NCBI GenBank assembly: GCA_038877255.1
Contig: JAVYWZ010000005.1
Location: forward strand, 1-44,733
DNA length: 44,733 bases
Direction: 5' to 3'
Source: Candidatus Micrarchaeaceae archaeon
GTDB lineage: Archaea; Micrarchaeota; Micrarchaeia; Micrarchaeales; CABMGC01
Shown: piece by piece, positions 19,747 to 23,247 of the stretch
Numbering within the stretch: position 1 is the first letter of the stretch
Layout of the letters: each line of letters opens with the position of its first letter
Notes under the pieces: generated by a model
What the model was told of the DNA's origin: nothing
What the model saw: the letters and a program-made list of their open reading frames with translations, nothing else
Database searches by the model: none
Program-made: the position numbers and the translations under genes

Positions 19747-19950
19747 CTATTTTTGTCTTTGCGCAAACAATGCAGAACTGTTTTGCTGCATATTGCTGTA
19801 CGTCGTGCGCTGCGCCTCCAAGACCTTCGGCTCGTCTTCCCAGTACCATTTCTCGAGCTTCTGCCGCGCGTACCTGCTTATTACAGGCGCGTGCCAAAGC
19901 ATTATTTTGCACCAAAACTGCACGTTAGGCTTTCTTGGTAACTTTTCCAT
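19747..19950 (-). CDS. Small hypothetical protein (67 aa), third gene of the divergent operon
   Basis: GAGGTG SD before ATG 19950 (MEKLPRKPNVQFWCK...). Overlaps the end of the upstream ORF. Confidence 0.55.
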   Translation of the reverse strand: MEKLPRKPNVQFWCKIMLWHAPVISRYARQKLEKWYWEDEPKVLEAQRTTYSNMQQNSSALFAQRQK

Positions 19951-20215
19951 TCTGTGCACCTCTAAGAGCGTAAACACAAGAAACATGCACGTAATGTGCT
20001 CGGCGCCTGTTGAGATAGTTACTTACCGCCCCTGGCTCCTTTGCCTCAACCATGAAGCCGTAGTCACCTTCTCCGATGCGAACCTCTTTTACACCGCTTA
20101 TTTTCAAGTACTCTAATGCAAGCGAGTATGCATTGGTGTTCTTGCCGCTGGGCTCTATGAAGAACAGGCTGCTCTGTATGGCGCTACCCATATTTCTGTG
20201 CCTTATGTTTTGCAT
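19925..20215 (-). CDS. Stand-alone RAM/Lrp ligand-binding-like domain protein
   Basis: AGGTGG SD. LFFIEP...LALEYLKISGVKEVRIGEGDYGFMVEA resembles the RAM motif (V.EV...G.YD.L.V). No HTH. Confidence 0.65.
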   Translation of the reverse strand: MQNIRHRNMGSAIQSSLFFIEPSGKNTNAYSLALEYLKISGVKEVRIGEGDYGFMVEAKEPGAVSNYLNRRRAHYVHVSCVYALRGAQNGKVTKKA

Positions 20216-20399
20216 TTCCCCACCTTGATATAAGCATTAGCGCAAGCGGTAACAGGAACAAGAGCATTAGCATAAAACGCCGGGGAAGGTCGGCGTGGTG
20301 GAAGTGTGGGTGCCACATTCGCGGGAGTACATTTATATCATGTTGAGTGGGTACGTAAGGAGTATGCTTTGTTTCGTTTCTCATGACACCCACACGCAT
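20184..20399 (-). CDS. Small single-TM membrane protein, first gene of the divergent operon
   Basis: His/Pro-rich N-terminus, hydrophobic FMLMLLFLLPLALMLI, basic tail. TTTATTAA about 22 nt upstream. Alternative start at 20384. Confidence 0.55.
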   Translation of the reverse strand: MRVGVMRNETKHTPYVPTQHDINVLPRMWHPHFHHADLPRRFMLMLLFLLPLALMLISRWGNAKHKAQKYG

Positions 20400-20415
20400 G
20401 ATATTATGCACAAAC

Positions 20416-20570
20416 TTTTATTTAATAAAGATGTAAAACACAACTAAGGCTCAAAGACATCACGACTATAAACATATGTTAATATTTCCAATAATCTAAC
20501 AATAATGTTTAAATTAAACTATAGCAAGCATAATTAATTGAACAATAAAAACAAAAACATTTATAAATAT
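20416..20570. promoter_or_regulatory. Divergent promoter region with candidate operators
   Basis: TATA-like TTTATTAA (minus, 20429-20422) and TTTATAAA (plus, 20560-20567). Palindrome AACATATGTT (20471-20480) and AAC-n6-GTT (20498-20509). Confidence 0.55.
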
Positions 20571-20589
20571 AACCTTAAATACATATAGT

Positions 20590-21963
20590 ATGGCGCAAGA
20601 ACTGCCTGAGCCTGTGGCAAAGACTTTAAGAGAGATAAAGAGAAAAAGGAATACAAAGCATGCAATTTTTGTGGTAAGCACAAAAAGGAACTACTATGTA
20701 TATGAGACTACTACAGCAAAGGTTGGCGACAAAAGAAAGGCGTTCAATCTTTATCTAGGAAAGATATTTCCAAATGGGGAATTTGTAGAGGCAAAAAGAA
20801 GGCGAACGCAATACACGTATGCCTCTAGCATAGACGAAATGCTTGAAAAGAGGCGCATGGTGTATGGCGAGGAACTTGCAAACCCTGACCCAATAGACTT
20901 GGAGATACTTACAATACTAAGCGGCAATGCGCGCGCTCAGACAAAGGAAATCGCAGAACAATTAAATTTCTCTGAGGCGGCAGTGCAGCACAGAATAGAG
21001 AGGCTAGAGCAGAGGTATGGAATAAGGTACACTATTGAAATAGCGCCGAGGCCGTTCGGCTATTTCAGGTATATTGTATTAGTTAAGTTCAACAGAGGCG
21101 CGCCGGAGATACAGGCAGCTAAGAAGGCGCTTGAAGCAGCACCGACTGTTCTCTATGCTGCATTGTTAAAAGGCGATTATGACCTGTTCATCTACATGCT
21201 CGCAGAGAACACCAGACTACTTGAAGACGCAATATACGATCTGCGCTCGTCGCATGCGTTTGCGCCTTACGAGGCTACATGGTATGTTACTTACATTACT
21301 TACAGTTATGGTTATATCCCATTAAGGCCAGCGTTCTTTGGCGAGTTAAGCAAGAAGGTCTGGCACAGAACAAAGGAAACGCCCAGAAAACCAGAGGGTG
21401 CGATCACAGAAAGAGAACTTGAGGTCTTGCAAGCAGTATCAGAAAACAGCAGAAGGCCATTTGCAGAGATAGACAAAGAGCTTGGGTTAGACCCTGGCTC
21501 ATCGCTTTACACTTATTCAAAGCTTTTAGATAAACAAATAATAACGAGAGCAACAATAACAATGGAAAGGCCACCTGTAAAGTACAACATGCTGATAGTA
21601 GCAAAGCAATCAAACATCTTAGAGTTTAACGCACATAGAACAGAGTATCTAGCACATCTTATAGAGCTTACCGGCCGGGTCACTAACAAGTATTTACTGT
21701 CAAGTGATATGGGCGCTCCATATGGTTTGTTGTTTATTGCGCCTTCTTATACAGGAGATCTGTATGAAATAACAGGAGAGCTGGGAAAGTTTGCAAAGGG
21801 CTGCGTGTTTGAAACTGGCGTAATAGTGCAGGAACTTGTAGGGCGATTGGGCTACAGAAGAATAGCAAAAGAAACAACCGCGCAATATAAGACACTACAA
21901 GAGCAGGCAGAATTAGAACAAGTAAATGTCAAAAGGCAAAAGGAAAAAGCAGAGCATATTTAA
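20590..21963 (+). CDS. Large Lrp/AsnC-family regulator: extra N-terminal domain plus two HTH-RAM units
   Basis: DPIDLEILTILSGNAR...EIAEQL..SEAAVQHRIERL (HTH1), LKGDYDLFI (RAM1), ITERELEVLQAVSENSRRPFAEIDKELG (HTH2). Confidence 0.85.
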   Translation: MAQELPEPVAKTLREIKRKRNTKHAIFVVSTKRNYYVYETTTAKVGDKRKAFNLYLGKIFPNGEFVEAKRRRTQYTYASSIDEMLEKRRMVYGEELANPDPIDLEILTILSGNARAQTKEIAEQLNFSEAAVQHRIERLEQRYGIRYTIEIAPRPFGYFRYIVLVKFNRGAPEIQAAKKALEAAPTVLYAALLKGDYDLFIYMLAENTRLLEDAIYDLRSSHAFAPYEATWYVTYITYSYGYIPLRPAFFGELSKKVWHRTKETPRKPEGAITERELEVLQAVSENSRRPFAEIDKELGLDPGSSLYTYSKLLDKQIITRATITMERPPVKYNMLIVAKQSNILEFNAHRTEYLAHLIELTGRVTNKYLLSSDMGAPYGLLFIAPSYTGDLYEITGELGKFAKGCVFETGVIVQELVGRLGYRRIAKETTAQYKTLQEQAELEQVNVKRQKEKAEHI

Positions 21964-22099
21964 CAGCAACAATTCTAACTCACGACGTTCTTTTCAGGTG
22001 TTGCCGTTTCCTCCCATGCGATTCACCTGCATACCCCTAAAACCTTTGTGTTTATAAAGCTTTTGCTGCGACGCTGGAAAGACAGTATACACGTTAAGT
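21766..22099 (+). repeat. Direct repeat copy 1 (regulator 3' end plus convergent micro-ORF and promoter)
   Basis: Aligns without gaps to 22164-22497 at an offset of 398 bp. Confidence 0.95.
21994..22017 (-). CDS. Putative micropeptide MGGNGNT
   Basis: AAAAGC-TTTATAAA (22058-22051), then AGGTGA SD, 5-nt spacer, and ATG GGA GGA AAC GGC AAC ACC TGA. Confidence 0.55.
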   Translation of the reverse strand: MGGNGNT

Positions 22100-22120
22100 A
22101 TTGCACATTTTGTAATACAG

Positions 22121-22361
22121 TACAACGACATAACAGTAGCAAAACAATCGTGGTAACCTTGACGAAATAACAGGAGAGCTGGGAAAGTTTGCAAAGGGCT
22201 GCGCGTTTGAAACTGGCGTAATAGTGCAGGAACTTGTAGGGCGATTGGGCTACAGAAGAATAGTAAAAGAAACAACTACGCAATATAAGACACTACAAGA
22301 GCAGGCAGAATTAGAACAGGTAAATGTCAAAAGGCAAAAGGAAAAAGCAGAGCATATTTAA
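22121..22361 (+). pseudogene. 3' fragment of a paralog of the Lrp/AsnC regulator
   Basis: YNDITVAKQS matches YNMLIVAKQS, then an internal deletion, then GNLDEITGELGKF...KAEHI* matching GDLYEITGELGKF...KAEHI*. Confidence 0.8.
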
Positions 22362-22497
22362 CAGCAGCAATTCTAATTCGCTACACTCTTTTCAGGTCTG
22401 ACCCATTCCTCCCATGCGTTTCACCTGCATACCCCTAAAACCTTTGTGTTTATAAAGCTTTTGCAGCGCTACTGAAAAGGCAGTATACGCGACCAGT
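22164..22497 (+). repeat. Direct repeat copy 2
   Basis: Aligns to 21766-22099. Confidence 0.95.
22392..22415 (-). CDS. Putative micropeptide MGGMGQT
   Basis: Same TATA (22456-22449) and AGGTGA SD, then ATG GGA GGA ATG GGT CAG ACC TGA. Confidence 0.55.
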   Translation of the reverse strand: MGGMGQT

Positions 22498-22566
22498 ACC
22501 AAAGATTAGGCTGCTAACAGATAAAAGTGTGCAAATGGATAAAAGGTTTCAAGCTTATATTAAAGC

Positions 22567-23247
22567 ATGCAGTGTTTTGTCGGAACGTCAGGCTGGCTCT
22601 ATTCTTGGAACAAGGAAGGCACGCTTGACTGGTACATTACTAACAGCGGACTCAACGCCATAGAGCTAAATGCCAGCTTCTATAGGTTTCCTTTTCCAAA
22701 TCAGGTTGTGGGCTGGAGCCGCAAAGGCGTTTCACTTGCATGGGTTATAAAGGCAAACCGGCTTATAACGCACGTGCACATGCTCAACGAAAAGGCAGAG
22801 TTGCTTTATGCGCGTTTTATCGAGTTGTTTAAGCCTCTCGATGAGCACATTGCACTTTACCTTTTCCAAATGCCTCCTAATTTCACTTCTAACATGCAGG
22901 AAAGGCTTGTAAAATTTGCAAAGAAATTCAACGCGGAGAAAATTGCGTTTGAATTTAGGCATGAAAGCTGGTATTCTTTTGATTTCAAAAGCCTTGATTT
23001 TAGCGGTGCAATAGTTTCGCCTGATTCGCCTGAAATAAACAGAAAGGTTTTCGTAAAAAATGGCATTGCATACTTACGCTTTCATGGAAGGCGTTCGTGG
23101 TACTCTTACAACTACAGCAGAAAGGAGCTTGAAGAAATGGCTGCGAAAGCAAAAGCACTCAGGCCTAAGAAAACATATGCCTTTTTCAATAACGACCATG
23201 ATATGCTTAATAATGCGCAAGAGTTCATGCGCCTTCTTGGCGATTGA
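22567..23247 (+). CDS. DUF72 (YecE/UPF0759) family protein
   Basis: VGTSGW, IELNASFYRFP, LFQMPP, AFEFRHESW, YLRFHG, YNYS, FFNN. Confidence 0.93.
   Translation: MQCFVGTSGWLYSWNKEGTLDWYITNSGLNAIELNASFYRFPFPNQVVGWSRKGVSLAWVIKANRLITHVHMLNEKAELLYARFIELFKPLDEHIALYLFQMPPNFTSNMQERLVKFAKKFNAEKIAFEFRHESWYSFDFKSLDFSGAIVSPDSPEINRKVFVKNGIAYLRFHGRRSWYSYNYSRKELEEMAAKAKALRPKKTYAFFNNDHDMLNNAQEFMRLLGD

Follow-up and report, generated by a model that had tools for sequence, protein, structure and literature searches.

Tiny glycine-rich micro-ORFs set tail-to-tail with double Lrp/AsnC-type genes in one Micrarchaeota order: a candidate peptide-plus-regulator unit or translation-based switch

Can an open reading frame (ORF) of seven codons be a gene and, if so, does it act together with the regulator gene that it faces? 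This question is raised by a stretch of 44,733 nucleotides (nt) from a Candidatus Micrarchaeaceae archaeon (assembly GCA_038877255.1, contig JAVYWZ010000005.1), hereafter the window, in which two such micro-ORFs lie on the strand opposite to, and just downstream of, a gene for a double Lrp/AsnC-like protein (20590..21963, plus strand). A preliminary description had regarded the two frames as expressed micropeptides and as possible ligands of the adjacent regulator. The comparison reported here places them in a conserved and apparently undescribed family of tiny Gly-rich genes that stand tail-to-tail with a multi-copy Lrp-type regulator within one order of the Micrarchaeota. Judged from the comparative evidence set out below, we consider it moderately probable that these micro-genes are real, translated and functionally coupled to the regulator each of them faces, in which case micro-gene and regulator may form an archaeal peptide-plus-regulator unit or a translation-based switch.

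Within the window, positions 21766-22065 and 22164-22463 form a direct repeat with an offset of 398 and 94% identity, which blastn extends to 21766-22093 versus 22164-22491 at 92.7%. Each repeat copy holds a 198-nt tail of the regulator gene and a 30-nt spacer, followed by a promoter and a micro-ORF on the minus strand. Micro-ORF 1 (21994..22017, minus strand) reads ATG GGA GGA AAC GGC AAC ACC TGA and encodes MGGNGNT, and micro-ORF 2 (22392..22415, minus strand) reads ATG GGA GGA ATG GGT CAG ACC TGA and encodes MGGMGQT. The repeat and both frames are present as the preliminary description had them, and its counts of the differences between the copies held on recount: one from TATA box to ATG, five in the ORF, 6 of the 30 positions in the spacer between the convergent stop codons (21964..21993 in copy 1) and 5 of 198 in the gene tail. 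All ORF differences are confined to codons 4-6 (AAC>ATG, GGC>GGT and AAC>CAG). The conserved promoter-leader block of micro-ORF 1 (22018..22093, minus strand) comprises a Shine-Dalgarno (SD) motif, a TATA box and a stretch resembling the transcription factor B recognition element (BRE). The TATA box TTTATAAA (22058-22051) is directly preceded by GCAGCAAAAGC, the SD AGGTGA (22028-22023) lies 22 nt past the TATA box with a 5-nt spacer to the ATG, and a conserved GTATACTG is located farther upstream; in both repeat copies, the BRE-like GCAAAAGC stands immediately upstream of the TTTATAAA TATA box. The minus-strand features of copy 2 equal those of copy 1 shifted by +398, with the promoter-leader block of micro-ORF 2 at 22416..22491, its SD at 22426-22421 and its TATA box at 22456-22449. 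The first oligo-T run in the sense of micro-ORF 1 (TTTTT, 21942..21946, minus strand) falls within the last codons of the regulator and is likely the terminator. An in-frame upstream ATG, from which 12-amino acid (aa) versions of the peptides had been suggested to start, does exist; these longer versions are unlikely and were discarded, since conservation of that ATG fails in 5 of 14 genus-level copies. As a separate observation, the palindromic TTTATAAA at 22449-22456 is situated 110 nt upstream of a DUF72 gene (22567-23247, plus strand) and could in principle serve that gene too, acting in the opposite direction.

The ~80-nt element made up of promoter, leader and ATGGGAGG is present in seven copies in the 713-kb genome of 30 contigs, namely two on contig C5 (the window), two on C2, two on C4 and one on C10. 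All seven micro-ORFs have seven codons, i.e., MGG followed by four variable codons and a stop, with TGA used by one clade and TAA by the other, and the encoded peptides are MGGNGNT, MGGMGQT, MGGLSNA, MGGAVGG, MGGCVGT, MGGCGGF and MGGCVGT. The combination of ATGGGAGG, 13 nt and a stop codon occurs seven times in the genome, every time inside this element. A strict detector, which called for an ATG, 4-15 codons with at least two Gly residues and, upstream of the ATG, an SD-like motif at 3-10 nt and a TATA-like box at 25-75 nt, returned eight sites on both strands (2 x 713 kb), seven of which are these elements, and such ORFs had a background rate of ~1 per 1.4 Mb of sequence scanned. Chance is far from accounting for this pattern. 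The promoter-leader block displays 85-92% identity among the seven genome copies, whereas the regulators are only ~49% identical as proteins, and the segment from the TATA box through ATG+8 is near-invariant in 14 genus-level copies. Moreover, C2 and C4 repeat the order found in the window, that is, full regulator, element, C-terminal gene fragment and element, beside regulators only ~49-50% identical to the window regulator. Two distant paralogs of 338 and 389 aa in the same genome are without a micro-ORF. When up to three mismatches were allowed, the leader motif was found nowhere in the genome beyond the seven elements, which rules out a general operator or regulon motif. Two further candidates were rejected as well: an SD-sequestering hairpin (CAGGTG/CACCTG) is restricted to the C5/C10 clade and lacking in the C2/C4 copies and in other genera, and for mobile-element ends no second conserved end was found beside the units, while a repeat at 19747-19963 of the window is unlinked to the C10 copy. 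On C10 (4393-4925), a broken regulator with one TAG and frame changes adjoins an intact MGGLSNA micro-ORF with a slightly altered promoter.

Regulator homologs (E≤1e-10) were detected in 53 of the 61 genomes of the same order, the own genome counted, and are often multi-copy. In a phylum-wide sample (E≤1e-30), the regulator was detected in two families (22 of 35 and 44 of 56 genomes) and in none of the 109 genomes sampled from 23 other families; genome G050 is counted only in the two genome tallies and contributes no locus. From the same order, 95 loci with a regulator 3' end were gathered, two of which were too short, and the remaining 93 were scanned from -60 to +300 around the regulator stop. 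The strict detector was positive on the opposite strand at 43 of the 93 loci as compared to none on the same strand and to 0.05% of 1860 shuffles, and a relaxed detector recovered 62 elements in 58 loci, with the micro-ORF stop mostly 5-50 nt from the regulator stop and in strictly convergent orientation. The preliminary description had proposed exactly such a scan of the opposite strand downstream of homologous genes, and with 43-58 of the 93 loci positive and none on the same strand its expectation was borne out. Looser inspection adds at least six loci, encoding for example MGGSGGD, MDGGGTGGAHG and MDGDGSG. Micro-ORFs occur at single-copy loci, in two families and in many genera, and their linkage to this regulator family is exclusive. 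Examples of the encoded peptides are MGGNDGQ, MGGGGGQ, MGGTGGGA, MEGGLPGGS, MEGGDTD, MNGGESN, MEGDGTE, MGGDLE and MSGGG; they span 5-16 residues, carry Gly at position 3 in 50 of 62 cases and are composed of 45% Gly, 7% each of Ser, Asp and Glu, and 5% each of Thr, Asn and Pro. Tandem re-duplication of the micro-gene was observed at 12 of the 85 loci with enough downstream sequence, in several genera. Most of these duplicates include a piece of the regulator 3' end, and at two loci (the L028 array described below and L032) they consist of the element or stop region only. Among 83 flanking ORFs of 25 loci, which look like unrelated housekeeping genes, no recurrent neighbour was found, so that a conserved partner gene (transporter, peptidase or modifying enzyme) was dismissed and regulator and micro-gene therefore appear as a self-contained pair.

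Is the micro-ORF read as a frame? A detector blind to Gly, which asks for a TATA box 26-38 nt upstream, an SD and an ATG, was positive at 38 of the 93 loci on the opposite strand versus one of 93 on the same strand. In the frames found in this way, Gly makes up 34% in frame 0 as against 6% and 3% in the two alternative frames, and each of the four Gly codons occurs. The orthologs L054 and L055, both encoding MEGGLPGGS, differ at two ORF positions, both synonymous, and at ~10 positions plus indels in the adjoining spacer. At L028:1078-1461 (genome G047), one TATA-like box precedes seven tandem micro-ORFs of 7-8 codons spaced ~46-59 nt apart (MGGAGGGG, MGGSGGGS, MSGSGGGG, MGGSGGGG, MGGAGGGS, MGGNGGG and MSGSGGGS); the array ends just before the regulator stop, all seven units keep ATG, frame and stop, and one micro-ORF has an in-frame 3-nt deletion. 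Because starts, frames and stops are kept despite sequence divergence, the micro-genes appear to be real and probably expressed, and to this extent the notion of expressed, regulator-coupled micropeptides found support. The RNA itself displayed no conserved structure: the mean fold z-score was +0.23 for 62 elements, with two of 62 below -2, and alifold of the conserved block yielded no consensus structure on either strand. On these two grounds a structured small RNA was ruled out. Rfam (E≤10) returned only two chance-level matches for 20000-23000 and only a tRNA-Asn for the whole window.

The copies vary in a characteristic manner. Between the two window copies, 5 of 12 core positions in codons 4-7 differ versus 16 of 242 elsewhere (p 0.0013), and for the first copies of C4 and C2 (C4a and C2a) the corresponding values are 6 of 12 versus 20 of 242 (p 0.0004). 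A genome of the same genus carries MGGNGQT at the orthologous site of micro-ORF 1, with two of its five differences in codon 6, and this codon-6 AAC>CAG variant was also seen on one metagenome contig when four DNA runs were looked at. In another genus (L065), tandem 426-nt copies show six differences, four of them in the ORF and the next 20 nt, and encode MNGGEDN and MNGEEDN. Thus, the peptide is kept between orthologs, divergent between paralogs and near-always distinct within one genome. Such conservation among orthologs together with divergence among paralogs looks like a specificity determinant, without being proof of one. For distant paralogs, conservation spans ~-75 to codon 3 and goes no farther; in pairs with at least 85% upstream identity, 24 of 420 positions differ upstream, as compared to 42 of 126 in the interior of the ORF and 171 of 280 downstream.

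With respect to its transcript, the micro-ORF departs from most long ORFs of the own genome, which appear to be leaderless, the spacing between the end of a TATA-like hexamer and their ATG peaking at 21-24 nt. For the micro-ORFs this spacing is 35 nt, and because of this difference a leader of ~12-13 nt is predicted, which would place the transcription starts immediately ahead of AGGTGA, around 22030 and 22428. The SD spacer had been described as that of housekeeping genes; 4-5 nt is indeed the usual geometry, but the motif is rare, as GGTGA within 20 nt upstream was found for 20 of 435 long own-genome ORFs, usually with a spacer of this length. Of the 62 elements, 31 have their first run of at least five T no more than 60 nt past the micro-ORF stop and 43 no more than 100 nt past it, and in 32 of 51 this run ends within the regulator coding sequence. 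Given the predicted start and an oligo-T run inside the regulator coding sequence, the micro-ORF transcript would measure ~100 nt and be antisense to the extreme 3' end of the regulator. As regards a possible cis-antisense RNA, a promoter-like box and convergent geometry were observed, and the overlap with the regulator 3' end is predicted.

The 457-aa product of the facing gene was recognized as a double Lrp/AsnC-like protein from its ORF and from Pfam, AlphaFold2 (AF2) and Foldseek analyses. It comprises a helix and beta-sheet domain (residues 1-70), a first helix-turn-helix (HTH; 101-143) and RAM domain (145-241), a second HTH (274-314) and RAM domain (318-417), and a C-terminal helix (431-456). 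Pfam assigned an HTH_AsnC-type domain (PF13404) to residues 100-140 with an E-value of 3.9e-15, AsnC_trans_reg remaining below the cut-off (E 0.0054). The AF2 model, with a mean predicted local distance difference test (pLDDT) score of 90.9, contains two HTH and alpha/beta-sandwich modules. In Foldseek, NirDL, a fused Lrp-like enzyme (4ch7, E 6e-12), matches this model best and over both halves, followed by many feast/famine regulatory proteins (FFRPs) of the Lrp/AsnC type, several solved with bound amino acids; against whole FFRP chains the template modelling score TM(target) was 0.66-0.77, indicating a RAM-type fold. According to the titles of the solved complexes among these matches, the ligands known for Lrp/AsnC proteins are amino acids in free form. 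Moreover, the homologs carry the source names Lrp/AsnC family, Candidatus Micrarchaeia or Micrarchaeaceae. These results agree with the RAM-domain Lrp-like regulator seen earlier, HTH and RAM-type folds each occurring twice. The partner is presumably a transcription regulator, although its closest structural match, NirDL, is an enzyme. Independently of this, many regulator homologs are placed on very short contigs or no more than a few hundred bases from a contig end, and in-frame stops occur in several; the family behaves like an assembly-breaking, fast-turnover repeat.

The surroundings of the pair deserve a brief account. The second repeat copy contains a remnant of the 3' part of the regulator gene (22116..22361, plus strand), in which 22164-22361 is a copy of 21766-21963 (regulator residues 392-457) and 22116-22149 a degraded remnant resembling 21578-21611 (76%). 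It shares 91% aa identity with regulator residues 388-457 and has GTG at 22224 as its sole in-frame start; because a convincing start codon is lacking, it is probably a gene fragment. In the AF2 model it spans only part of the second RAM domain and the C-terminal helix, for which reason a separate domain protein is unlikely. Upstream of the regulator, on the minus strand, lies a 96-aa ORF (19925-20215) without a Pfam match at E≤0.01, which has a 93-aa paralog at the same position on C2, both with GEGDYG, and which may belong to the module as a third component at genus level. A stretch of ~215 nt (19747-19963) is near-identical at C2:26860-26998 (98.6%) and C10:20751-20963 (90.7%); it covers the 3' end of the 96-aa ORF and, in another frame, a 79-aa ORF (19747-19986, minus strand) that matches an ORF preceding the C2 regulator over a run of ~46 identical residues, and it could represent a frameshifted gene or a separate conserved element.

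According to these observations, the unit consists of a BRE-like purine run with TATA box, a predicted ~12-nt leader with GGTGA, an ATG with 5-16 codons in which those for Gly abound beside codons for Asp, Glu, Asn, Ser, Thr and Pro, then a stop and an oligo-T run, usually inside the last regulator codons, and it lies convergently 5-50 nt past the stop of most copies of the ~450-aa double Lrp/AsnC gene in the order. This unit would be transcribed as an RNA of ~100 nt and translated into a tiny Gly-rich peptide, and the micro-gene would act jointly with the regulator it faces. As to the mechanism, our preference, held tentatively and by analogy, is that the peptide serves its own regulator as a private effector that acts on the RAM domains, the variable core keeping paralogous modules in one cell separate, as in leaderless pairs of peptide and receptor in Firmicutes, though here with a receptor of Lrp type. 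A contribution by antisense RNA is likely too, because the transcript must run into the regulator 3' end, and we regard this ligand model and a translation-coupled antisense switch as about equally likely. A bolder and rather doubtful extension of the analogy would make the double-Lrp proteins receptors of directly encoded archaeal micro-peptide signals with a private code for each paralog, which could be used in self-recognition, quorum sensing or communication between symbiont and host.

Several findings weigh against the reading of the unit as a translated, regulator-coupled micro-gene with a peptide effector. The evidence for synonymous-only change comes from a single ortholog pair (L054/L055). 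The peptides are of low complexity (45% Gly) and 5-16 residues long, which is odd for specific ligands, and no linked exporter, importer or peptidase was found among the 83 flanking ORFs of the 25 loci. Between 29 and 35 of the 93 loci have no clear micro-ORF, most of these being distant paralogs or having a coding gene directly downstream, and no RNA run covering this stretch was found. Among paralogs, it is the promoter-leader block through codon 3 and not the ORF body that is most conserved. Additionally, variability often extends to the spacer behind the stop, and the apparent hypervariability of the core may in part reflect relaxed constraint or escape from gene conversion, with constraint or gene conversion acting on the flanks. 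Finally, GGA accounts for 62% of the 211 Gly codons of the micro-ORFs as compared to 30% of 603 in the adjacent regulator genes and 19% in the own genome overall, and GGAGG lies inside 42 of the 62 micro-ORFs, which are 72% purine. Because of the enrichment of GGA and GGAGG, constraint appears to act partly at the nucleotide or translation level, beyond the peptide.

This codon bias is also what lends weight to a translation-coupled switch in cis, which we hold to be possible though doubtful, and in which the micro-ORF would be translated, the peptide would be a by-product and the loading or stalling of the ribosome would matter. A frame rich in Gly, Pro and Asp and containing GGAGG would be SD-like and difficult to translate, and could therefore sense the supply of Gly-tRNA or the activity of aIF5A, and ribosome behaviour would set the stability or read-through of an RNA antisense to the regulator 3' end, thereby tuning a regulator of the feast/famine type. 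The composition (Gly 45%, Asp 7%, Glu 7%, Pro 5%), the strictly convergent layout with a gap of 5-50 nt, the first T run ending inside the regulator coding sequence in 32 of the 51 elements and the tandem duplicates at 12 of 85 loci, most of which (not the L028 array and L032) carry a piece of the regulator 3' end, are all in line with such a switch, and there is a precedent in the seven-codon mccA of Escherichia coli, for which ribosome binding is described to control termination and message stability (PMC4231749). What the switch leaves unexplained is that paralogs in one genome have different cores, yet an ortholog pair changes only synonymously, and that the core diverges faster than its near-identical flanks; neither alternative hairpins nor a conserved structure was found. 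Furthermore, ribosome stalling at Gly-rich or GGAGG sequences in archaea enters this argument as general background.

The frame could, on the other hand, be incidental to a non-coding element of ~85 bp acting as promoter-operator, SD-mimic or antisense RNA for the regulator family. As estimated from stop-codon frequency, any ATG in this composition would meet a stop within ~10-15 codons, so that short ORF length alone is expected by chance and argues against purely peptide-level constraint; the block from ~-75 to +8 is more conserved than both the ORF body and the regulator genes, and purines make up 72% of the RNA, in which GGAGG is frequent. We nevertheless judge this explanation unlikely, since the ATG stands at a fixed distance from SD and TATA box in 38-58 of the 93 loci, Gly falls in frame with it (34% versus 6% and 3%), L054 and L055 differ synonymously only, and all seven units of the L028 array keep ATG, frame and stop, including the one with the in-frame deletion. 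Moreover, the RNA lacks conserved structure, and the leader motif is found at no other promoter of the genome, contrary to what a general operator would show. A functionless by-product of recent tandem duplication of 3' ends, i.e., a remnant of recombination or integration, would account for the truncated gene fragment without a good start in the second copy, for regulator copies that are often at contig ends and in some cases have internal stops, and for the C10 copy that adjoins a broken regulator. This explanation is very improbable: micro-ORFs are found at single-copy loci in two families and many genera against a background of ~1 per 1.4 Mb, the order of regulator, element, fragment and element is also seen at paralogous loci that have diverged and in further genera, and the comparative data contradict duplication debris. 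Hypermutation of the diversity-generating retroelement type and a precursor of thiazole/oxazole-modified microcins or other ribosomally synthesized and post-translationally modified peptides were considered and set aside, as a variable tract of only 12 nt, the lack of a leader peptide in the ORF and the absence of adjacent enzyme genes speak against them.

Genes of 5-16 codons are invisible to annotation, and the present family was revealed by comparison. Its micro-genes pair one-to-one with the members of an expanded regulator family in DPANN genomes only 0.6-1.1 Mb in size, and genomes this small are not expected to retain seven useless copies; the module itself is small and self-contained. 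If translation of the frame matters, archaea would possess a novel type of antisense control coupled to the ribosome. If the double-Lrp proteins do receive peptide signals, they would form the first known archaeal system of signalling by peptide and receptor, and a fold so far known only for the sensing of free amino acids would gain peptide ligands. No literature on micro-ORFs paired with Lrp-type proteins in archaea was found in open-access papers and bioRxiv, and the module appears to be undescribed in print.

How does the module compare with known systems? Leader peptides such as those of trpL and hisL are likewise very short ORFs rich in one amino acid, and translation of the micro-ORF could in the same way report aminoacyl-tRNA supply; unlike in these attenuators, there is no downstream gene on the same strand and there are no alternative hairpins, and what follows is the antisense of the regulator 3' end. 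On the protein side, the siroheme decarboxylases NirDL and AhbAB share with the regulator the succession of an HTH_AsnC and a RAM-type domain twice in one chain, whereas the additional N-terminal beta domain, the C-terminal helix and the multi-copy family distinguish it from NirDL and from Lrp/AsnC proteins in general. A micro-gene partner for Lrp/AsnC proteins was not found in the open-access and bioRxiv literature, and one candidate source mentions Lrp-AsnC regulators only within a copper island (PMC5498576).

A resemblance to microcin C-type genes extends to the length of the frame, as all seven own-genome copies have seven codons with GGTGA 4-5 nt upstream, translation being predicted here. 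MccA-type peptides end in Asn, and their gene precedes an operon for the adenylyltransferase MccB. By contrast, none of the seven own-genome peptides ends in Asn (the last residues being T, T, A, G, T, F and T), and no MccB-type gene is adjacent, the flanks consisting of DUF72, ATP-binding cassette (ABC) transporter and housekeeping genes. As described in the literature, mccA is a translated seven-codon gene whose length but not sequence is conserved (PMC6495379), and ribosome binding to this tiny ORF controls termination and stabilizes a short, abundant transcript (PMC4231749).

Closer to the preferred reading of the peptide as a private effector are the peptide-receptor systems of bacteria. 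Several cassettes of paralogous regulator and small peptide with divergent cores per genome are also found for Rap-Phr, PlcR-PapR and AimR-AimP. Classical RRNPP and arbitrium peptides are cut from longer secreted propeptides (PMC10518010), whereas in the present case the whole ORF has 5-16 codons and no signal sequence, and the receptor has another fold. For RRNPPA receptors, including RopB, this fold is of the tetratricopeptide repeat (TPR) type, and here it is the double HTH and RAM fold of Lrp/AsnC proteins according to AF2, Foldseek and Pfam; as judged from the model, the module does not belong to the RRNPPA family. The RopB systems differ further from the present one in that the latter has a DPANN archaeal host, Gly-rich hydrophilic peptides and a strictly convergent tail-to-tail layout. 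In the SIP/RopB system of Streptococcus pyogenes, a 24-bp ultrasmall ORF beside the gene for a cytosolic transcription regulator directly encodes the mature 8-aa peptide, and such leaderless communication peptides (LCPs) have neither export signal nor propeptide, differ in their codes between homologous pairs and are missed by annotation (PMC10518010). An ultrasmall ORF adjoining the regulator gene, as observed here at 43-58 of the 93 loci, is the feature shared with this leaderless type, which among described systems comes closest, followed by mccA, and if the Gly-rich peptides are indeed ligands, they would constitute a new effector class for Lrp/AsnC proteins and an archaeal circuit comparable to the bacterial RRNPPA and LCP systems.

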